Shown here: one piece after another, positions 20,135 to 56,605 of the stretch
Numbering within the stretch: the first letter of the stretch is position 1
Layout: each line of letters begins with the position of its first letter
Assembly (NCBI RefSeq): GCF_036507355.1
Contig: NZ_AP027877.1
Reading direction: 5' to 3' (one strand)
DNA from: Escherichia coli
Lineage (GTDB): Bacteria; Pseudomonadota; Gammaproteobacteria; Enterobacterales; Enterobacteriaceae
Length of the DNA: 64,000 nucleotides
Made by a program: the position numbers and the translations under genes
Notes under the pieces: model-generated
What the model was told of the DNA's origin: nothing
What the model saw: only the letters and a program-made list of their open reading frames with translations
Databases searched by the model: none

Positions 20135-20898
20135 GTCAGCCATTATTATCTGTTAACGGCCTGATGATGCGCTTCGGCGGCCTGCTGGCGGTGAACAACG
20201 TCAATCTCGAACTGTACCCGCAGGAGATCGTCTCGTTAATCGGCCCTAACGGCGCCGGAAAAACCACGGTCTTTAACTGCCTGACCGGTTTCTACAAACC
20301 CACCGGCGGAACCATTTTACTGCGCGATCAGCATCTGGAAGGTTTGCCGGGGCAGCAAATTGCTCGCATGGGCGTGGTGCGTACCTTCCAGCATGTGCGT
20401 CTGTTCCGCGAAATGACGGTGATTGAAAACCTGCTGGTGGCGCAGCATCAGCAACTGAAAACCGGGCTGTTCTCTGGCCTGTTGAAAACGCCTTCTTTCC
20501 GTCGCGCCCAGAGCGAAGCGCTCGACCGTGCCGCCACCTGGCTTGAGCGCATTGGTTTGCTGGAACACGCCAACCGTCAGGCGAGTAACCTGGCCTACGG
20601 TGACCAGCGCCGTCTGGAGATCGCCCGCTGCATGGTTACGCAGCCGGAGATTTTAATGCTCGACGAACCTGCGGCAGGTCTTAACCCGAAAGAAACGAAA
20701 GAGCTGGATGAGCTGATTGCCGAACTGCGCAATCATCACAACACCACTATCTTGTTGATTGAACACGATATGAAGCTGGTGATGGGAATTTCGGACCGAA
20801 TTTACGTGGTCAATCAGGGGACGCCGCTGGCAAACGGTACGCCGGAGCAGATCCGTAATAACCCGGACGTGATCCGTGCCTATTTAGGTGAGGCATAA
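20131..20898 (+). CDS. livG: Branched-chain amino acid ABC ATPase LivG (255 aa)
   Basis: Walker [10 protein letters not shown]. Confidence 0.95.
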
Positions 20899-20899
20899 G

Positions 20900-21613
20900 A
20901 TGGAAAAAGTCATGTTGTCCTTTGACAAAGTCAGCGCCCACTACGGCAAAATCCAGGCGCTGCATGAGGTGAGCCTGCATATCAATCAGGGCGAGATTGT
21001 CACGCTGATTGGCGCGAACGGGGCGGGGAAAACCACCTTGCTTGGCACATTATGCGGCGATCCACGCGCCACCAGCGGGCGAATTGTGTTTGATGATAAA
21101 GACATTACCGACTGGCAGACGGCGAAAATCATGCGCGAAGCGGTAGCGATTGTCCCGGAAGGGCGTCGCGTCTTCTCGCGGATGACGGTGGAAGAGAACC
21201 TGGCGATGGGCGGCTTCTTTGCCGAACGCGACCAGTTCCAGGAGCGCATAAAGTGGGTGTATGAACTGTTCCCGCGTCTGCATGAGCGCCGTGTTCAGCG
21301 GGCAGGCACCATGTCCGGCGGTGAACAGCAGATGCTGGCGATTGGTCGCGCGCTGATGAGCAACCCGCGTTTGTTGTTGCTTGATGAGCCATCGCTCGGT
21401 CTTGCGCCGATTATCATCCAGCAAATTTTCGACACCATCGAGCAGCTGCGCGAGCAGGGGATGACTATCTTCCTCGTCGAGCAGAACGCCAACCAGGCGC
21501 TAAAGCTGGCGGATCGCGGCTACGTGCTGGAAAACGGTCATGTGGTGCTCTCCGATACTGGTGATGCACTACTGGCGAACGAAGCGGTGAGAAGTGCGTA
21601 TTTAGGCGGGTAA
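20900..21613 (+). CDS. livF: Branched-chain amino acid ABC ATPase LivF (237 aa)
   Basis: ORF 20888..21613 trimmed to MEKVMLSFDKV; Walker A GANGAGKTT. Confidence 0.93.
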   Translation: MEKVMLSFDKVSAHYGKIQALHEVSLHINQGEIVTLIGANGAGKTTLLGTLCGDPRATSGRIVFDDKDITDWQTAKIMREAVAIVPEGRRVFSRMTVEENLAMGGFFAERDQFQERIKWVYELFPRLHERRVQRAGTMSGGEQQMLAIGRALMSNPRLLLLDEPSLGLAPIIIQQIFDTIEQLREQGMTIFLVEQNANQALKLADRGYVLENGHVVLSDTGDALLANEAVRSAYLGG

Positions 21614-21731: not shown

Positions 21732-22478
21732 ATGCATTATGCCGTTGTTGTCATGCTTGAACTGCTTTGCTGTATTCACGCTTACCGTACCGGACAAGAG
21801 CGGTACTGGATTTTTATCATTTTCTGTTTTCCGGTGATTGGCTGCGTGGCGTATTTCGTCATAGTGATGCTGCCTGAAACGGGCGCTGACCGTCACGGGC
21901 ATACTTTGCTGATGCGCCTGCAGGACAAACTCAACCCTGAGCGCCACCTGCGCAAATTAACCGAAGAACTGGCGATTGCCGAGACGAATCAAAACCATTA
22001 TGCGTTGGCTAATGAACTGGCGCGTCTGGAGCGTTACCACGAAGCCGTTCCCCATTATCAGCAGGCGTTAAGCGGGATATTCGCCCATGAAGCGGCAATG
22101 ATGTTAAGCCTGGCGCAGGCACAGTTTGCTATTCAGGAGTTCGCCGCCTGTCAGCAGACGCTGGAAGATGTGATGCGTTATAACCCTGATTTTCAGTCGG
22201 CAGACGGGCATTTGTTATTTGCCAGAACGTTAGCCGCACAAGAAAAATACGCTGATGCGGAAAGCGAGTTTGAAGTATTGATTTCTTATTACCCCGGCCC
22301 GCAGGCGCGTATTTACTATGCGGAAATGTTGGCGAAAATGAGTCGGTTACGTGAAGCCAACGAGCAGTATGTTGCTGTAGTTGATACGGCTAAACGCTCA
22401 AGACCTCATTATAGAAAACACCACCGGGAATGGATTAAGACCGCCAATGAACGGCTGAAGCAGAGTGTGGTGCAATGA
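21732..22478 (+). CDS. Hypothetical protein: PLDc_N-like two-helix membrane anchor plus soluble helical (TPR-like) domain (248 aa)
   Basis: N-terminus IHAYRTGQERYWIFIIFCFPVIGCVAYFV resembles the PLD N-terminal membrane module; remainder predicted helical; not part of the K-12 livF-ugpB junction as I recall it. Confidence 0.6.
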   Translation: MHYAVVVMLELLCCIHAYRTGQERYWIFIIFCFPVIGCVAYFVIVMLPETGADRHGHTLLMRLQDKLNPERHLRKLTEELAIAETNQNHYALANELARLERYHEAVPHYQQALSGIFAHEAAMMLSLAQAQFAIQEFAACQQTLEDVMRYNPDFQSADGHLLFARTLAAQEKYADAESEFEVLISYYPGPQARIYYAEMLAKMSRLREANEQYVAVVDTAKRSRPHYRKHHREWIKTANERLKQSVVQ

Positions 22479-30854: not shown

Positions 30855-31349
30855 TTATGAACAACTGTCCATGATTTCGTTTAAGAATGAAGAGAAATCA
30901 CTAAACGAACTGAATATATTTTCTGTGCCAATATTATCTCTAATTTCAAAAAAGTTACTTTTAATGTCATAAGTAAATATTGAAATGCTATCATCCCCGA
31001 TCACTAACCGTTCTTGTAGATCAGGGTTTATGAAATCATCATTATTTCTATAAAATTCATTTACGGCAAAAAGGTTTTTAACTGAAGGTTCTGGAATCGA
31101 GAGGCTAAATAATCGTAATCCATTAACTTCGAATCCATCCATTGCTCTTAAAAAAGTAAGATAATCAGGTTGATTCTTAAAAAGAATACTAACTTCATTA
31201 CATAACTTCTCCAGGCAATTAGTTGAATTAGAATTAAATTCTATTTGGATTATACTTTCAATAAATGATTCCTTGAGCGGTGCTTCAAATGGATAGTCTA
31301 AATCATTCATCATTTTTATTAATTTGTTTATTTGGGTTTTAGTCATCAT
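30855..31349 (-). CDS. Putative immunity protein (YrhA-like), translationally coupled to the upstream Hcp-HNH gene (164 aa)
   Basis: Start ATG overlaps the stop of the HNH reading frame (ATGA); AT-rich, acidic small protein typical of immunity genes. Confidence 0.6.
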   Translation of the reverse strand: MMTKTQINKLIKMMNDLDYPFEAPLKESFIESIIQIEFNSNSTNCLEKLCNEVSILFKNQPDYLTFLRAMDGFEVNGLRLFSLSIPEPSVKNLFAVNEFYRNNDDFINPDLQERLVIGDDSISIFTYDIKSNFFEIRDNIGTENIFSSFSDFSSFLNEIMDSCS

Positions 31350-32524
31350 TTTGTGGGTTCCATAATATTTTTCATGGGAGGATAAATTGAGCCAGATGGA
31401 ATGGCCCAGGGAGTGATTTTACTTTCACCTACTAATATTCCCTTAGCTATTCGTGATTGCATGTTAGTAAAAACTTTATGATATGGTTCGTTTTCGATTA
31501 ATACTAAATTTTCGAAATCATTAGTACCACCATCATCTAGAGATAGTTTATGGTGAACATTATAATTTAGAGGAACATAGCCCTTTCTCATTCTTAAAAG
31601 GTCTTCGGCGTTGAATCTTCCAGATGCTTCGGAGGTTTTTGCAAGTTTGATAAGAAAATTTTTTCTTACAGTTTTGTTAAACTCCTTTCGTAAGTTAGCT
31701 AAGTCTTTTGAAGGTCTCTTAATGTATATTATTTATATTATGTCTATGCCATCAAGAAGTTTTTGTTGACCTCTAAGTTTGCCTAAGTAACTATTTATTT
31801 CTGTATATGTATCAACTCTAGAACGCTTTGTTAAAAGAATAGATGCTGTTGCTATCGCTATGCCCGCTGTTTTTTCATTTAGTATTTGATCATAGCCTTT
31901 GATTGCATCTCCACCCAGTTTTTCCGCAGTATCTCTGAATCCTTCAATGTTCCCATTGTATACGCCACCAGCAGCAAGTAGCCTGCCAACAGCTTTGCTG
32001 TTTAACGTTTTGAAACGATTATTTGTTTGGTTTTTTGAATTTGGTAAAAACAAACGGTTATAATTTTCAGGGAGTGCCAAATAGCTGAACTCGGTATTTG
32101 CGATAAGATGTTGACAGAGGATAAATTCATAACTAACAGTTATTGTTTCTGTATCCAGTTGATTTTCAATGATCTGATGATGAATAGCCGATAAAAAAGC
32201 GCCTCTTAGTTGTATATAATAATACTTTTCCCATCTGCCAAATCTATTGATTCTATAAAAGTCAAATCCCATAAATAATTGCTCATTATTGTTAATGGAA
32301 TTAATAAGTAATGGAGTGCTTTTATCAATTAATTTACAAAATGTTATACCCTGTAACTGTGAACCAAGCCCCGTATTAGTAATGCTATTTGCGAGTGAGA
32401 ATGTAAATATTTCATTCTCATGCCCGCTCTGCCAGCGATTACCTATAGATTCAGTAGTCCCACAACCTGCGGAGATGCTTCCTTGTTGTTCTCCCGTTAC
32501 TGTCAGGTAAACAATATTACTCAT
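31346..32524 (-). pseudogene. yhhZ: Hcp-domain protein with C-terminal HNH nuclease (YhhZ-like Hcp-ET toxin), interrupted by an in-frame TAA
   Basis: ORFs 31733..32524 (263 aa, Hcp-like N-terminus) and 31346..31591 (HNH motif NYNVHHKLSLDDGGTNDFENLVLIENEPYH) are in the same frame, separated by one TAA at 31733..31735; the full span is 393 codons. Confidence 0.7.
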
Positions 32525-32760
32525 CCCTGAAAAGTCCTTTTATGGCATGCTATTTTATCAATGGCACTATTATGCTTGTTAATTGTTATTTATTTACTCC
32601 AGGAAATTGTAGGCGTATATATTAAAAAATAAAATATTACACTTTAGGAAGTAATTATGAGGTAAATCTCAATATATTTATTGGGAAAATAAATATATTA
32701 AAGGAAGGTATGCCGATTTTGAATGACACCCTTTTTCCATCTCAGAAAAAGGGCACTATC

Positions 32761-33249
32761 TTACTTCACCCGCGCCATATAATACGCATCGACATATTCA
32801 CCATTACGCAATGCGTACTTCTTACCAGTCCCTTCAATTTCAAAGCCGTATTTTTTATAGACCTTAATTGCCGGGGCGTTATCGACAAACACGGTTAGTT
32901 CAATGCGATCTACCCGCAACCAGTTGTCGCACATTTCAATCATCTCTCGCATAAGGGCGCTGGCGACGCCGCGATTCTTCCAACGGGAGTCGACACAGAT
33001 ACCAAAATCGGCAACATGACTGCGGCGTGGGCGCTGTTGCACGTCAATGGTGAGATGACCCACGACGTCTCCATCAATACAGGCGACGAGTTGCTTGATG
33101 CCGGGACGATCGGCGAGTCGCTCCTGCCACATATGATCGGAAGGATGAGGCACCTGTAGTGTGTTGTAATACACCTCCGGCTGGGCGTGAATCTGCCTGA
33201 TGGCCTCGTAATCGCGCGTTTCAGCATGGCGTATCACTATCTCACTCAT
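32761..33249 (-). CDS. yhhY: GNAT N-acetyltransferase YhhY (162 aa)
   Basis: ORF 32761..33327 trimmed to MSEIVIRHAETRDYEAIRQIHA. Confidence 0.9.
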   Translation of the reverse strand: MSEIVIRHAETRDYEAIRQIHAQPEVYYNTLQVPHPSDHMWQERLADRPGIKQLVACIDGDVVGHLTIDVQQRPRRSHVADFGICVDSRWKNRGVASALMREMIEMCDNWLRVDRIELTVFVDNAPAIKVYKKYGFEIEGTGKKYALRNGEYVDAYYMARVK

Positions 33250-33346
33250 TCCTTTGTCCTCTTTGGGGGAAATGTCCCTTTCAACATCATTGACTTTCGA
33301 ATGCGAGTCAAATGCATTTTTTTGCAAAAAGTGTTGGACAAGTGCG

Positions 33347-33365
33347 AATGAGAATGATTATTATT
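33347..33365 (+). promoter_or_regulatory. Fur box overlapping the ryhB promoter
   Basis: aatgagaatgattattatt resembles the Fur consensus GATAATGATAATCATTATC, immediately upstream of the RyhB start. Confidence 0.6.
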
Positions 33366-33370
33366 GTCTC

Positions 33371-33466
33371 GCGATCAGGAAGACCCTCGCGGAGAACCTG
33401 AAAGCACGACATTGCTCACATTGCTTCCAGTATTACTTAGCCAGCCGGGTGCTGGCTTTTTTTTTT
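33371..33466 (+). ncRNA. ryhB: RyhB iron-responsive small RNA
   Basis: gcgatcaggaagaccctcgcggagaacctgaaagcacgacattgctcacattgcttccag...gccagccgggtgctggc plus T-tract terminator, matching my memory of RyhB; in the yhhY-yhhX spacer. Confidence 0.9.
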
Positions 33467-33582
33467 GATCTTTCGTTCTCAATTTATCCACGGGAGTGCT
33501 TGTGTTCGTTATGCGCACTCCAGTAGGAACCACGCCCGCTTTGCGCTAAGGTGTAAATAACCACCTTAAAAAGGACGAAATT

Positions 33583-34620
33583 ATGGTCATCAACTGCGCC
33601 TTTATTGGCTTCGGCAAAAGCACCACCCGTTACCATCTGCCGTATGTACTTAACCGCAAGGATAGCTGGCATGTCGCGCATATTTTTCGTCGCCATGCGA
33701 AGCCGGAAGAACAGGCTCCCATTTATTCCCATATCCATTTCACCAGCGATCTCGACGAAGTGCTAAACGATCCCGATGTTAAGCTGGTTGTTGTCTGCAC
33801 CCATGCGGATAGCCACTTCGAGTACGCGAAGCGCGCGCTGGAAGCCGGGAAAAATGTGCTGGTCGAAAAACCGTTCACTCCGACGCTTGCGCAGGCGAAA
33901 GAGCTGTTTGCTCTGGCGAAAAGTAAAGGGCTGACCGTCACGCCATATCAGAATCGTCGCTTTGATTCCTGCTTCCTGACGGCGAAAAAAGCGATTGAAA
34001 GCGGCAAGCTGGGAGAGATTGTCGAAGTGGAAAGCCATTTTGACTATTACCGCCCGGTGGCAGAAACCAAACCTGGGCTGCCGCAGGATGGCGCGTTCTA
34101 TGGCCTTGGTGTGCATACGATGGACCAGATTATTTCTCTATTCGGTCGCCCGGATCACGTCGCTTATGACATCCGCAGCCTGCGCAATAAAGCCAATCCT
34201 GACGATACTTTCGAAGCGCAACTGTTTTATGGCGATCTAAAAGCCATCGTCAAAACCAGCCATCTGGTGAAAATCGATTATCCGAAATTTATCGTTCACG
34301 GTAAGAAAGGTTCGTTTATTAAATACGGTATCGACCAGCAGGAAACCAGCCTGAAGGCTAATATTATGCCGGGCGAACCGGGATTCGCAGCGGATGATTC
34401 GGTCGGTGTGCTGGAGTATGTCAATGACGAGGGCGTGACGGTCAGAGAAGAGATGAAGCCGGAGATGGGCGATTACGGGCGCGTTTATGATGCGTTGTAT
34501 CAAACCATCACCCACGGTGCGCCAAATTACGTCAAGGAATCTGAAGTTCTTACGAATCTGGAAATCCTTGAACGCGGATTCGAGCAAGCCTCTCCCTCCA
34601 CAGTGATTCTCGCGAAGTAA
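33583..34620 (+). CDS. yhhX: Gfo/Idh/MocA-family oxidoreductase YhhX (345 aa)
   Basis: 345 aa; N-terminal Rossmann motif. Confidence 0.92.
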   Translation: MVINCAFIGFGKSTTRYHLPYVLNRKDSWHVAHIFRRHAKPEEQAPIYSHIHFTSDLDEVLNDPDVKLVVVCTHADSHFEYAKRALEAGKNVLVEKPFTPTLAQAKELFALAKSKGLTVTPYQNRRFDSCFLTAKKAIESGKLGEIVEVESHFDYYRPVAETKPGLPQDGAFYGLGVHTMDQIISLFGRPDHVAYDIRSLRNKANPDDTFEAQLFYGDLKAIVKTSHLVKIDYPKFIVHGKKGSFIKYGIDQQETSLKANIMPGEPGFAADDSVGVLEYVNDEGVTVREEMKPEMGDYGRVYDALYQTITHGAPNYVKESEVLTNLEILERGFEQASPSTVILAK

Positions 34621-47787: not shown

Positions 47788-50253
<2,466 letters not shown>

Positions 50254-50369: not shown

Positions 50370-51887
50370 ATGGAAAGAATAATGCAAAACAGAAAATGGA
50401 TTTTGTCCTCGCTGGTAATGACTTTTTTCGGCATCCCCATACTGACGCAATTTTTGGCGGCGGTTGTTGCTATGCTGGGTGTCGGACTTGCCGGTATTAT
50501 TGAAGTTTGTAATATCCTTATCACGCCAACAATTTACCTTCTGCTCAACATTTTTATGCTGGCGCTGGGCGCATTAATGCTATTTTTCTCGGGGCGAGTA
50601 TGGGCAGGCGATAGTGCACCAGAAAAAAGAGAAATAGCCGTCTGGCGGCAATGCTTTTTTCTCTTACCCGCGCTATTAACCCTGGTTGGCTGGATAATCA
50701 CGCTACATCTGGCAGATTATCAATTTCGCCAGATGGGAGCTGGTTGGTTGGCAAACCTTATGCTTCCCTGGTTGGGCGTTTTTTTAGTCTCATTAGTGGG
50801 TGGTGAGTACTGGTGGATGGTCATTATTCCCGTTGGGGCGCATATCAGTTTTTCGCTGGGATACGCCTGGCCGACCAGATATCCTTTATCCGGCACGTCC
50901 GGACTACGTTGCCGTAACTTACTCCTGTTTCTACTTCTCTTACTTGGTATTGTCGCCGGGTATCAGGCCCATTTATATAAGCAGCAAAATCCTGGTGTCG
51001 GTGTACGCGAAAATATTGATATCTGGGCCTGGCGACCCGATAAACTCAATAATCGACTGACGCCGCTGCGTGGCAAACCGCAAATTCAGTTTAGGCAAAA
51101 CTGGCCGCGAATCGATGGCGCCACGGCTGCGTACCCAATTTATGCTTCTGCATTTTATGCATTAAGCGTAATACCAGAGGATTTTCACGTTTGGGATTAT
51201 CTGGAAAACTCTCGTACGCCAGAAGCATATAACAAAATCGTTAAGGGCGATGCTGATATTATTTTCGTGGCGCAACCTTCTGGTGGGCAAAAAAAACGTG
51301 CAAAGGAATCTGGTGTCACTTTGCTGTACACCCCCTTTGCCCGTGAAGCATTCGTTTTCATCGTCAATGCGGATAATCCGGTTAATTCCCTGACTGAACA
51401 ACAGGTGCGTGACATTTTCAGTGGTGCAATTACCAATTGGCGTACTGTTGGCGGTAACGATCAGGAGATCCAGACCTGGCAGCGCCCGGAAGACTCTGGC
51501 AGCCAGACAGTGATGCAATCACAGGTCATGAAAAATGTCCGCATGATCTCGCCGCAGGAAACGGAAGTGGCAAGCGTGATGGAGGGAATGATTAAAGTCG
51601 TTGCCGAATACCGTAATACAAACAACGCAATAGGCTATACCTTCCGCTATTACGCGACGCAAATGAATGCTGATAAAAATATAAAATTGCTAGCGATTAA
51701 CGATATTACACCGACGGCGGAAAACATTCGCAACGGCAAATATGCGTACATCGTCGATGCATTTATGGTAACGAGGGAAAATACGACGTCAGAGACACAA
51801 AAATTGGTGGAATGGTTTTTAACGCCGCAGGGGCAGAGTTTGGTGGAAGATGTGGGATATGTGCCGATGTATCCAACAATGGAATAA
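50370..51887 (+). CDS. Polytopic membrane domain fused to a PstS-like (PBP_like_2) substrate-binding domain (505 aa)
   Basis: About 200 aa with ~6 hydrophobic helices, then GATAAYPIYASAFYAL...SGSQTVM...IGYTFRYYA, which resembles PstS motifs. Confidence 0.7.
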   Translation: MERIMQNRKWILSSLVMTFFGIPILTQFLAAVVAMLGVGLAGIIEVCNILITPTIYLLLNIFMLALGALMLFFSGRVWAGDSAPEKREIAVWRQCFFLLPALLTLVGWIITLHLADYQFRQMGAGWLANLMLPWLGVFLVSLVGGEYWWMVIIPVGAHISFSLGYAWPTRYPLSGTSGLRCRNLLLFLLLLLGIVAGYQAHLYKQQNPGVGVRENIDIWAWRPDKLNNRLTPLRGKPQIQFRQNWPRIDGATAAYPIYASAFYALSVIPEDFHVWDYLENSRTPEAYNKIVKGDADIIFVAQPSGGQKKRAKESGVTLLYTPFAREAFVFIVNADNPVNSLTEQQVRDIFSGAITNWRTVGGNDQEIQTWQRPEDSGSQTVMQSQVMKNVRMISPQETEVASVMEGMIKVVAEYRNTNNAIGYTFRYYATQMNADKNIKLLAINDITPTAENIRNGKYAYIVDAFMVTRENTTSETQKLVEWFLTPQGQSLVEDVGYVPMYPTME

Positions 51888-52905
51888 CGCTCGAGAGAAA
51901 GGAATCAGCGAGACGAATAAATTCACCGGTGTTTTACTATTAGGCACGGCGTTACTGGCGGGATGTGTCGACCGGGAAGGGTACTATAACAGCGTCAGGG
52001 AAGAAGAGAGCCATGGACTGACGTCTCTGCGGGGGCAACCTGCATTACGTTACAGCGATGATTGGTCAAGATGGCCGAGAGTGTACGGCGCTACAGCCTT
52101 ATACCCGCTGTATGCCTCCGCGTATTATAAATTAGTACCCGAGCCAAAAGATAAGGATCGAACCTCGCTGGCCTGGCAGGCGTATGGTTTGCAGCAAACC
52201 CGAACAGCTGAAGCCTACGATAGTCTGATTAAAGGTTCCGCGACGGTTATTTTTGTTGCACAACCGTCGGAAGGACAGAAAAAACGTGCAGAAGAAGCGG
52301 GTGTTAAACTGAAATATACCGCTTTCGCCCGCGAAGCCTTTGTCTTTATCGTTGATATTAATAACCCGGTAAATTCTCTCTCTGAGCACCAGGTTAAAGA
52401 TATTTTTAGCGGCAAAACTAGCCGCTGGAATAAAGTAGGTGGTAGTGACGAACATATAAAAGTCTGGCAGCGCCCTGAAGATTCTGGAAGCCAAACGATT
52501 ATGAAGGGGTTGGTTATGCAAGACACCCCAATGCTGCCAGCTAAAAAATCCACTGTGATTGATCTTATGGGCGGTTTAATTACTGAAGTTGCCGACTATC
52601 AAAACACGCCATCTTCCATTGGGTACACCTTCCACTATTACGTCACTCGTATGAATGACAATATGCTCAAAATGCGCAAGCAGATTAAACTTTTGGCTAT
52701 AAATGGCGTTGCGCCTACCGAGGAAAATATCCGCAACGGCACTTATCCATACATTGTGGATGCCTATATGGTGACGCGTGAAAATCCCACGCCGGAAACG
52801 CAGAAATTTGTTGACTGGTTTATAAGTCAGCAGGGGCAACAGTTGGTAGAGGATGTGGGGTATGTGCCGCTGTATGAAGCATCCCCCGAATCATCAGGAC
52901 AATAA
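51850..52905 (+). CDS. PstS-like substrate-binding lipoprotein, paralog of the upstream gene's C-terminal domain (351 aa; start uncertain)
   Basis: Lipobox LLAGC; domain collinear with the 505-aa protein; start overlaps the upstream gene by 38 nt. Confidence 0.7.
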   Translation: MWDMCRCIQQWNNAREKGISETNKFTGVLLLGTALLAGCVDREGYYNSVREEESHGLTSLRGQPALRYSDDWSRWPRVYGATALYPLYASAYYKLVPEPKDKDRTSLAWQAYGLQQTRTAEAYDSLIKGSATVIFVAQPSEGQKKRAEEAGVKLKYTAFAREAFVFIVDINNPVNSLSEHQVKDIFSGKTSRWNKVGGSDEHIKVWQRPEDSGSQTIMKGLVMQDTPMLPAKKSTVIDLMGGLITEVADYQNTPSSIGYTFHYYVTRMNDNMLKMRKQIKLLAINGVAPTEENIRNGTYPYIVDAYMVTRENPTPETQKFVDWFISQQGQQLVEDVGYVPLYEASPESSGQ

Positions 52906-53442
52906 TGATGAATATAATCAGACTTTATATTTATCCGTTATTTCTCGGCTTTGTTATTGTGCCGTTGTTGGTGTGGCCGATGGTGGTTGCGCTGGCTGCT
53001 TGTATTATCACGCTGAGTTTTCTGGGGGAAATGCTGTTCTCAATCCCGCTCATGATCAGGCGTATTTCACTTCTGCAATTACAACTTTGGTTATCGGCTG
53101 AATATGCGCTTTTCTTCTGTGTAATGTGTTGCGTTGGTTGGCAATTTACTCGTAGAACTCAATCTGAATTGAAAAGCAGGCTCCATTGTTGGTTGGTATT
53201 CGCACCGGTCTATTTATGGTTGATCCTCTGGAATATCATTTTTTACATCGCGCCAGCGAAAATTGCGTTGCTGGAAAGTATCCGCAATTTCTTTCTGCTT
53301 GTTGTCTGGCTACCCCTGAATTTTTCGCCATTTTGGCCTCAGCCGTGGACGGATTTTATCGGTCCAATAAGCGCACAGTGAGGTAGCCTGAGTTTAACGG
53401 ACACTCCTTCCTGAAATAGAATGGCATCAGAAGGAGCTAATA

Positions 53443-53745
53443 ATGAGCAGAAAAACCCAACGTTACTCTAAAGAGTTCAAAGCCGAAGCTGTCAGAACGG
53501 TTCTTGAAAATCAACTTTCGATCAGTGAAGGCGCTTCCCGATTATCTCTTCCTGAAGGCACTTTAGGACAATGGGTTACCGCCGCCAGAAAAGGGCTCGG
53601 TACTCCTGGTTCCCGCACGGTGGCTGAACTGGAATCTGAAATTCTGCAACTGCGTAAGGCGTTAAATGAAGCTCGCCTTGAGCGAGATATATTAAAAAAA
53701 GCAACAGCGTATTTTGCACAGGAGTCGCTGAAAAATACGCGTTAA
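53443..53745 (+). CDS. IS3-family transposase OrfA (HTH, 100 aa)
   Basis: MSRKTQRYSKEFKAEAVRTV...; typical IS3 OrfA with leucine zipper. Confidence 0.85.
   Translation: MSRKTQRYSKEFKAEAVRTVLENQLSISEGASRLSLPEGTLGQWVTAARKGLGTPGSRTVAELESEILQLRKALNEARLERDILKKATAYFAQESLKNTR
53694..53701 (+). promoter_or_regulatory. Probable -1 programmed frameshift site (A6G) for the OrfAB transposase
   Basis: aaaaaaag near the 3-prime end of orfA, upstream of the orfB frame. Confidence 0.55.
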
Positions 53746-53780
53746 TCGAACAATGGCGACAACAATTTCCCATTGAAGCG

Positions 53781-54599
53781 ATGTGTCAGGTATTTGGTGT
53801 ATCCAGGAGCGGTTATTACAACTGGGTACAGCATGAACCCTCAGACAGAAAACAAAGTGATGAGCGGCTAAAACTGGAGATTAAGGTGGCACATATCCGC
53901 ACTCGCGAAACATATGGAACCCGGCGGCTCCAGACGGAGCTGGCAGAGAATGGCATCATCGTTGGTCGTGACCGACTGGCACGTCTTCGTAAGGAGCTAA
54001 GGCTACGCTGTAAGCAGAAACGCAAGTTCAGAGCGACTACGAACTCGAACCACAATCTGCCAGTTGCGCCAAATCTGCTGAACCAGACGTTCGCTCCTAC
54101 AGCACCAAATCAGGTCTGGGTGGCGGACCTGACGTATGTTGCCACACAGGAGGGATGGTTGTACCTCGCTGGCATCAAAGATGTTTATACGTGCGAAATT
54201 GTCGGCTACGCCATGGGAGAGCGCATGACAAAAGAGCTGACAGGTAAAGCCCTGTTTATGGCGCTCAGGAGCCAGCGCCCACCTGCCGGGCTAATCCACC
54301 ACTCTGATCGAGGTTCACAGTACTGCGCATACGATTACCGGGTCATACAGGAGCAGTTTGGTCTGAAAACATCAATGTCGCGTAAAGGTAACTGTTACGA
54401 CAACGCTCCGATGGAAAGCTTCTGGGGAACGCTGAAAAATGAGAGCCTGAGCCACTATCGTTTTAATAACCGGGATGAAGCCATCTCAGTAATACGGGAA
54501 TACATTGAGATTTTCTACAATCGTCAGCGTCGTCACTCTCGTCTGGGGAATATCTCCCCGGCAGCCTTCAGGGAAAAATATCATCAGATGGCTGCTTAA
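53781..54599 (+). CDS. IS3-family transposase OrfB (DDE integrase core); the true N-terminus is probably fused to OrfA by frameshifting
   Basis: 272-aa ORF with an rve-type integrase core. Confidence 0.85.
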   Translation: MCQVFGVSRSGYYNWVQHEPSDRKQSDERLKLEIKVAHIRTRETYGTRRLQTELAENGIIVGRDRLARLRKELRLRCKQKRKFRATTNSNHNLPVAPNLLNQTFAPTAPNQVWVADLTYVATQEGWLYLAGIKDVYTCEIVGYAMGERMTKELTGKALFMALRSQRPPAGLIHHSDRGSQYCAYDYRVIQEQFGLKTSMSRKGNCYDNAPMESFWGTLKNESLSHYRFNNRDEAISVIREYIEIFYNRQRRHSRLGNISPAAFREKYHQMAA

Positions 54600-54827: not shown

Positions 54828-54930
54828 GCCTGATGCGGCGTGAATGCCTTCTCAGGCCTACAAAATCATGCAAATTCAATATATTGCATAAACCACGTAG
54901 GCCTGATAAGCGTAGCGCATCAGGCAATTT
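54828..54930. repeat. REP pair downstream of glpD
   Basis: gcctgatgcggcgtgaatgccttctcaggccta and gtaggcctgataagcgtagcgcatcaggca. Confidence 0.7.
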
Positions 54931-54988: not shown

Positions 54989-56494
54989 TTACGACGCCAG
55001 CGACAACTTCTGCTGCGTATACTCCACCAGCCACTGACTCACACGAGATTGTTGATCCGCATTCAGCCACATGCCTTGTTTTGTGCGACGCCACAGGGCA
55101 TCGTCGGCGCGGCGGACCCATTCGTGATCCACCAGGTATTTCAGCTCCGCTTCGTAGAACTCATGACCGAAATCTTCCCCGAGATCGCTTACCGTCCCCG
55201 CATTGCCGAGCAGCAACTCGCTGTTGCTGCCGTAAGTGCGCGCGTAGTGACGTGCCAGCGATTCGGTCAGGAACGGGTAGCGGCGGCGCAGGCGGGCGGC
55301 ATAATCGTCGCGGTCGCCTTCAATGGCACCACCCGGCAGCACGCTCTCTTTCGTCCATGCCGGGCCAATGCCCTGATAATACGGCGTTAGTTTTTCCAGC
55401 GCGTGCTCCGCCAGTTTGCGGTAGGTGGTCAGCTTACCGCCGAATACCGACAGCAGCGGTGCTTTGCCGTTTTCATCATGGATATCAAGGGTGTAATCAC
55501 GGGTAATGGCCTGCGGCGAGTCGGACTCATCATCACACAGCGGACGCACACCGGAGTAAGTCCAGACGATATCGTCACGGCTTAACTGCTTTTTAAAGTG
55601 CGCGTTATACACTTTCAGCAGGTAATTGATTTCACTCTCTTCAATCTTCACCGCTTTCGGATCGCCTTTGTATTCCACATCGGTGGTGCCGATGATGGAA
55701 AACTCATCCATCCACGGGATCACGAACACAATGCGTTTATCTTCGTTTTGCAGAATGTAGGCTTGCTTCTGGGTATGCACACGCGGCACCACAATATGGC
55801 TGCCTTTGATCAGGCGAATGCCATAAGGCGAAGGCAGATGCATGCCGTCGTCGAAGAACTGTTTCACCCACGGGCCGGTAGCATTCACCAGGCCGCGCGC
55901 CTGCCAGCGGTATTTTTTGCCGGTGTCGATATCTTCCGCTTCCACAATCCACAAGCCGTTTTCGCGGCGAGCAGAGGTGGCGCGAGTGCGGGTAAGCACT
56001 TCGCCGCCTTTACGCACCACCATCTGAGCGTTGGCGAGTACCAGACGGGCGTCGTCTACCCAACAGTCGGAATATTCGAATCCGCGCTTGATTTCCGGTT
56101 TTAACACTGAGTTTGCGCCAAAACGCAAGCCGGTTGATCCCGGCAGGCTGGTGCGTTTACCCAGATGATCGTACATAAACAGACCAATCCGAATCATCCA
56201 CGCCGGGCGCAGATGCGGACGATGTGGCAGGCGAAAACGCATCGGGAAGGCGATATGCGGGGCCATTTTCAGCAGCACTTCACGTTCAGCCAGCGCCTCG
56301 CTGACCAGGCGGAATTCATAGTGCTCAAGGTAGCGCAGGCCACCGTGAATGAGTTTTGAACTAGCGGAAGAGGTCGCGCAAGCGAGATCCTGCGCCTCCA
56401 GCATCAGCACGGATAAACCGCGTCCAGCGGCGTCTGCCGCGATACCAGCACCATTGATGCCGCCCCCTATCACAATCAGATCTTTGGTTTCCAT
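54989..56494 (-). CDS. glpD: Aerobic glycerol-3-phosphate dehydrogenase GlpD (501 aa)
   Basis: ORF trimmed to METKDLIVIGGGINGAGIAADAAGRG (FAD-binding motif). Confidence 0.95.
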   Translation of the reverse strand: METKDLIVIGGGINGAGIAADAAGRGLSVLMLEAQDLACATSSASSKLIHGGLRYLEHYEFRLVSEALAEREVLLKMAPHIAFPMRFRLPHRPHLRPAWMIRIGLFMYDHLGKRTSLPGSTGLRFGANSVLKPEIKRGFEYSDCWVDDARLVLANAQMVVRKGGEVLTRTRATSARRENGLWIVEAEDIDTGKKYRWQARGLVNATGPWVKQFFDDGMHLPSPYGIRLIKGSHIVVPRVHTQKQAYILQNEDKRIVFVIPWMDEFSIIGTTDVEYKGDPKAVKIEESEINYLLKVYNAHFKKQLSRDDIVWTYSGVRPLCDDESDSPQAITRDYTLDIHDENGKAPLLSVFGGKLTTYRKLAEHALEKLTPYYQGIGPAWTKESVLPGGAIEGDRDDYAARLRRRYPFLTESLARHYARTYGSNSELLLGNAGTVSDLGEDFGHEFYEAELKYLVDHEWVRRADDALWRRTKQGMWLNADQQSRVSQWLVEYTQQKLSLAS

Positions 56495-56605
56495 GCTGCC
56501 CTCATTCACTTTCGTTAAAGCTCATAAATGTTCGTTATCGAACATATTAGCAAAGAATTGCGCTTTAGGTAACATTGAAAAAACATTTTAGAGTGATATG
56601 TATAA

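Follow-up and report, generated by a model that had tools for sequence, protein, structure and literature searches.

The ryhB small RNA gene between yhhY and yhhX in a 64-kb stretch of Escherichia coli DNA

In Escherichia coli K-12 MG1655, the small RNA (sRNA) gene ryhB (b4451) lies on the minus strand at NC_000913.3 3580922..3581016, flanked by yhhX on the same strand, past which lies yhhW, and by yhhY on the plus strand. In K-12, the yhhX-yhhY spacer has a cluster of predicted Fur sites (25.2 bits) "right in front of" ryhB, and binding of Fur to this site was shown by gel shift (PMC2189734). An in vivo Fur-titration selection had at first led to the site being assigned to yhhX, and it was reassigned to ryhB in the same study that reported the gel shift (PMC2189734). 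At its 3' end, K-12 RyhB has a poly-U of 9 and a hairpin of -10.7 kcal/mol; read-through of the terminator was ~20% during normal growth on a plasmid construct, and the read-through products lose Hfq binding (PMC4509938). G44 and C45, which lie within the seed, are critical for pairing (PMC6191717). The terminator, the binding of Hfq, and the circuit of Fur, sodB, and sdhCDAB have all been described for the exact sequence considered here (PMC4509938, PMC6191717). A functional analogue of RyhB, the Fur-repressed and iron-sparing sRNA PrrF, occurs in Pseudomonas.

Here, we compare these described systems with a locus near the middle of the window, by which we mean the whole 64-kb stretch of DNA that was analysed. 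The sequence points to the chromosomal ryhB of an Escherichia coli-type genome, encoding the ~90-95-nt Hfq-dependent sRNA RyhB, and we give this reading a probability of about 97%. It is carried by an Rfam match, identity to K-12, the anatomy of the promoter, operator, and terminator, synteny, and complementarity to sodB. The gene is intact and in its usual place; it is already known, and there is nothing new about it. Its value is that of a landmark fixing the ~77-min region, and it opens no new biological question.

Identity and anatomy of the RNA gene

The features of the locus and its two neighbours are as follows.

32761..33249, minus strand: yhhY (GNAT N-acetyltransferase), the divergent left neighbour; an open reading frame (ORF) with Pfam Acetyltransf_1 at 1.4e-18, annotated yhhY in matching genomes
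33335..33340, plus strand: -35 hexamer TGGACA of the ryhB promoter, from a consensus scan; the same in K-12
33350..33368, no strand assigned: Fur box (Fe2+-Fur operator) of 19 bp, agreeing with GATAATGATAATCATTATC at 16 of 19 positions
33359..33364, plus strand: -10 hexamer TATTAT, from a consensus scan; within the Fur box
33371..33466, plus strand: RyhB sRNA transcript, 95 nt in the K-12 annotation and up to 96 nt here, with an extra T
33408..33416, plus strand: seed, RyhB nt 38-46 (GACAUUGCU), pairing partner of the region around the sodB start codon
33439..33466, plus strand: Rho-independent terminator and Hfq-binding 3' end, with the hairpin at 33439-33457 and the T-run at 33457-33466
33583..34620, plus strand: yhhX (GFO/IDH/MocA oxidoreductase), the co-directional right neighbour; an ORF with Pfam GFO_IDH_MocA_C at 4.8e-47, annotated yhhX in matching genomes

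By searching the whole window against Rfam 15, with gathering cut-offs applied, we obtained a single match to the RyhB family (RF00057), at 33400-33464 on the plus strand, which spans model positions 1-67 of 67 and scores 83.1 bits (gathering score 55; E 3.6e-14). A permissive local scan of 32700-34000 returned the match at the same coordinates (E 7.3e-16). Besides RyhB, both strands of that interval gave only PrrF (RF00444, 21.2 bits vs. a gathering score of 90) and Esr41 (RF02676, 19 bits vs. 102), two weak matches over the RyhB interval that score so far under gathering that the RNA is a member of neither family. The RF00057 model spans just the 3' 65 nt of RyhB, its conserved 3' two-thirds. 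Because the match therefore stops short of the 5' 29 nt, we checked these by alignment to K-12, and they were confirmed by identity. Over its full length, 33371-33465 is identical to the 95-nt K-12 ryhB (b4451) at 95 of 95 positions, by alignment and by script, and this identity sets the 5' end of RyhB at 33371 (G). From 33300 to 33480, the window reads ...TTGGACAAGTGCGAATGAGAATGATTATTATTGTCTC, then GCGATCAGGAAGACCC...GCCAGCCGGGTGCTGGC(T)10 GAT.

These results support an initial annotation of this DNA, which had placed a full RyhB with its terminator at 33340-33466 and had named an Rfam covariance-model search and an alignment to K-12 ryhB as ways to check it. Both were run, and RyhB was called well above the gathering score, with the alignment showing the same promoter, Fur box, spacer, and relative orientation as in K-12. 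The proposed end at 33466 is exact, as this is the last T of the terminator, whereas the proposed start at 33340 falls on the final base of the -35 hexamer and so slightly clips the promoter. The annotation had also described the gene as a known feature, in line with the match to the annotated K-12 sequence.

To compare the surroundings, window positions 33240-33600 were aligned to the reverse complement of the corresponding NC_000913.3 region. The two loci sit in the same place between yhhY and yhhX, and they are identical in the 95-nt transcript, the -35 and -10 hexamers, the Fur operator, the sodB seed, and the stem-loop of the terminator. They differ by one extra terminator T and by spacer SNPs at 33269, 33299, 33535, and 33582, all of which spare the promoter, operator, RNA body, and terminator stem. 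Across the 120 bases upstream of the ryhB start, 118 are identical to K-12, including the whole promoter and Fur box.

The seed GACAUUGCU is the exact reverse complement of K-12 sodB from -4 to +5 (AGCAAUGUC), spanning the start codon, and it corresponds to the pairing between RyhB nt 38-46 and sodB that Geissmann and Touati reportedly mapped in 2004. The target sequence in this comparison was that of K-12, with the source strain's own fur, hfq, and sodB lying outside the window. An unrestricted RNAduplex prediction between full RyhB and 100 nt of sodB was uninformative, giving an unrealistic 86-nt duplex that 71 of 500 shuffles equaled. We therefore used a search for the longest perfect complement against a 60-nt sodB target instead, which recovered the published 9-bp seed; a perfect run as long as this 9-nt seed arose in 19 of 1000 RyhB shuffles. 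The seed also holds the first copy of a tandem 8-nt repeat (ACATTGCT twice, at 33409-33416 and 33418-33425).

At the 3' end, a terminator scan found a hairpin with a 7-bp stem, five G-C pairs, and a 5-nt loop, with an AU-rich AGUAUUACUU directly 5' of it. The predicted layout of an Hfq-binding module is present, with AU-rich sequence leading into the hairpin and a long poly-U behind it, as described for RyhB (PMC4509938). In a single-sequence fold of the RNA, the minimum free energy structure (-24.1 kcal/mol) reproduced the terminator hairpin plus a 5' hairpin, although with z = -0.67 it was matched in stability by 48 of 200 shuffles, and thermodynamics by itself therefore lends no support. 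As short sRNAs usually behave in this way, the weak fold and duplex statistics do not speak against the identity of RyhB.

Two mechanical ORFs also cover this interval, and nothing supports either of them. The first is a 34-codon TTG frame at 33364-33468 (plus strand) whose start codon precedes the transcription start, and the other is a 52-codon GTG frame at 33375-33533 (minus strand), antisense to ryhB.

Genomic context and conservation among E. coli genomes

Both flanking ORFs are those that the initial annotation had claimed when it assigned ryhB to the yhhY-yhhX spacer. The yhhX frame begins 116 nt past the T-run, and the yhhY start lies 122 nt from ryhB on the opposite strand. This synteny matches K-12 and E. 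coli PapM-32-1, with yhhY divergent, ryhB and yhhX co-directional, and yhhW next. Among 5426 complete E. coli genomes, PapM-32-1 (baboon, Gambia) is the closest over window positions 22000-46000 (24 kb), at 99.0% identity and with collinear sequence. The shared gene order runs ugpBAECQ, yhhA, ggt, yrhB, yrhD, yrhA, tssD/yhhZ, yhhY, yhhX, yhhW, gntRKU, yhgN, asd, and glgBXC. Because even the closest genome is only 99.0% identical over these 24 kb, the source lineage, judged by this sequence, is unrepresented among the 5426 complete genomes and stands ~1% from any of them. Three of the best four matches over 22000-46000 were baboon isolates, and the fourth had no stated host.

The window as a whole is the ~77-min region of E. 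coli (zntA ... liv ... ugp ... ggt ... yhhY-ryhB-yhhX ... gnt ... glg ... glpD), and it runs opposite to K-12 coordinates. The earlier suggestion that ryhB confirms the identity and orientation of the region thus holds.

The 451-nt yhhY-yhhX spacer was found in 5424 of the 5426 complete E. coli genomes, every time on the chromosome. The 151-nt segment made up of promoter plus gene was likewise found in 5424, at ≥99% identity in 3608 of these. The ryhB region is altogether absent from the other two genomes. We aligned six sequences chosen across the identity range, and the promoter and operator were invariant in all six, with SNPs falling at -1, in one strain, and past the terminator. Of the five genomes aligned with the window, four had the RNA body unchanged, and the fifth, picked as the outlier, had a 9-nt seed duplication. 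RefSeq/PGAP records have no feature annotated beneath the ryhB matches, whereas the curated K-12 record carries the ncRNA. This is a matter of annotation practice and not of gene absence.

A natural seed variant occurs in the clinical E. coli isolate 23AR0151 (NZ_CP195448.1, New Zealand), the sole genome of the 5424 in the 90-95% identity band. Its RyhB seed contains a 9-nt tandem duplication, ACATTGCTC, aligned with 33409-33417, so that the ACAUUGCU motif occurs three times rather than twice, and this could alter target pairing.

By script, the terminator T-run counts 10 T in the window vs. 9 in K-12. Nine T is the state in K-12 and most E. coli, and the 10-T run is also present in E. coli O157:H7 PV15-279 (NZ_AP018488.1). 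There, the 151-nt promoter-plus-gene segment is 100% identical to ours, 10-T run included, and the differences in the ryhB region all lie past the terminator, one of them at the position aligned with 33491. A longer run might shift the efficiency of ryhB termination and so change how much functional, Hfq-binding RyhB is made compared with transcripts that read through into yhhX, in which case the 10-T lineage would have a slightly different iron-sparing set-point. We consider this particular effect very doubtful, and any functional consequence of the run unlikely. The additional T could equally be a homopolymer sequencing error.

Regulation by Fur and alternative readings of the locus

A consensus scan of 33100-33700 found one promoter-like site, a sigma-70-like TGGACA-18-TATTAT with 10 of 12 consensus matches and 6 nt between the -10 hexamer and the K-12 5' end at 33371. 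A Fur-like box over this promoter had been noted initially, and it was recovered at 33350-33368, spanning the -10 hexamer. Read on the minus strand, the box has three mismatches to GATAATGATAATCATTATC, and it is the one match at ≤3 mismatches in the 64-kb window, where shuffles gave an expectation of 0.01 by chance. It extends from the promoter spacer through the whole -10 hexamer and on to -3 (-21 to -3 from the ryhB start), and this predicted geometry is that expected for repression through promoter occlusion. Since the operator sequence is identical to the K-12 site, the evidence for Fur binding in K-12 transfers to the window. From this identity and the literature, we infer that Fur would also repress ryhB in the source strain.

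Under this model, when iron is plentiful, Fe2+-Fur would sit on the 19-bp operator (33350-33368), overlapping the -10 hexamer and spacer, and block RNA polymerase. When iron is scarce, Fur would leave, and transcription would start at 33371 and stop at 33439-33466, where the hairpin is followed by the U-tail. Hfq would then bind the U-tail together with the AU-rich sequence ahead of the hairpin, and the single-stranded core (nt ~38-60) would pair, around the site of translation initiation, with mRNAs such as those of sodB and sdhCDAB, which encode non-essential iron proteins. This pairing would block translation of the targets and trigger their decay by RNase E, sparing iron. Dependence on Hfq and decay of targets in the source strain are likewise expected from identity to K-12 and published work (PMC4509938, PMC2189734, PMC6191717). 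As read from its sequence, the iron-sparing RyhB circuit thus appears to be intact in this strain.

We weighed whether the Fur box might instead mainly serve the protein-coding neighbours, either yhhX by read-through from ryhB or the divergent yhhY, with the sRNA incidental. The history of the site lends this some weight, as the in vivo Fur-titration selection first assigned it to yhhX (PMC2189734), and so does the ~20% of polymerases that, in a plasmid construct, continued past the ryhB terminator (PMC4509938). In addition, yhhX is on the same strand, just 116 nt downstream, and the 33100-33700 scan offered it no other promoter-like site. However, the operator lies at -21 to -3 of the ryhB start, the study that discusses the yhhX assignment itself moves the site to ryhB (PMC2189734), and ryhB ends in a canonical terminator whose 7-bp stem is rich in G+C and is followed by 10 T. 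As for yhhY, its start is 122 nt off on the other strand, too far for an obvious occlusion of its promoter by the Fur box. Primary control of the neighbours is therefore unlikely, and control of yhhX or yhhY by the Fur box would at most be an effect in addition to control of ryhB, not an alternative to it.

A further possibility is that the locus does not hold the functional orthologue but a copy that has decayed or fallen silent, or else a paralogue, as RyhB-2/IsrE is in Salmonella. The one-base difference in the T-run is the sole point in favor of this, yet the same 10-T run is shared with O157:H7 PV15-279, and K-12 shows no difference in promoter, operator, seed, or terminator stem. The locus is also syntenic, and the window contains one RyhB match, leaving a degenerate or second copy highly improbable. 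Lower still, and in our view negligible, is the probability of a chance resemblance with no real feature behind it, given the Rfam E value of 3.6e-14, the complete match (100%) to an annotated gene, and a Fur box for which chance predicts 0.01 occurrences in the window. A functional chromosomal ryhB remains our reading of the locus.

Other features of the window

Between ryhB and yhhX, the spacer contains a 10-nt inverted repeat at 33490-33524 (plus strand; ACGGGAGTGC and GCACTCCAGT, 90% complementary, 15-nt loop), and at 33489-33504 a scan picked up a hairpin that weakly resembles a terminator. Each of these may form a structure in read-through RNA or in the leader of yhhX.

On the other side of ryhB, beside yhhY, the Hcp-HNH effector gene yhhZ/tssD (31346-32524, minus strand) carries a GAA-to-TAA nonsense change at codon 264, with the stop at 31733-31735. 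This splits the Hcp part (263-aa ORF; Pfam T6SS_HCP, 3.7e-12) from the C-terminal HNH nuclease (81-aa ORF; weak HNH match). The gene is uninterrupted, at 392 codons, in K-12 and PapM-32-1. Downstream of yhhZ, a yrhA-like ORF without a Pfam match (30855-31349) is retained.

Farther out, a 248-aa TPR-repeat ORF (21732-22478, plus strand) lies just upstream of ugpB and after the ORF at 20888-21613, which we take to be livF; its counterpart in the closest genome is annotated only as "hypothetical protein." At the opposite end of the window, four ORFs occupy 50370-54599, between an 815-codon ORF at 47806-50253, presumably glgP, and a 506-codon minus-strand ORF at 54989-56509 that we assume to be glpD. 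Two of the four encode periplasmic-binding-type proteins (PBP_like_2, 505 and 351 aa) with overlapping ends; the others are a 158-aa ORF without a Pfam match and an IS3-type transposase orfB (rve, HTH_21).

Rfam also reported the sRNA ES036/CssrF at 54862-54904 (plus strand), with 43.6 bits against a gathering score of 37.6. The match lies between two REP-like palindromes, downstream of the transposase ORF and just past the 3' end of the 54989-56509 ORF. Its 56-nt core recurs at up to five different chromosomal places per E. coli genome, suggesting that the match is the middle of a dispersed BIME/RIP-type repeat and not an sRNA gene in its own right.
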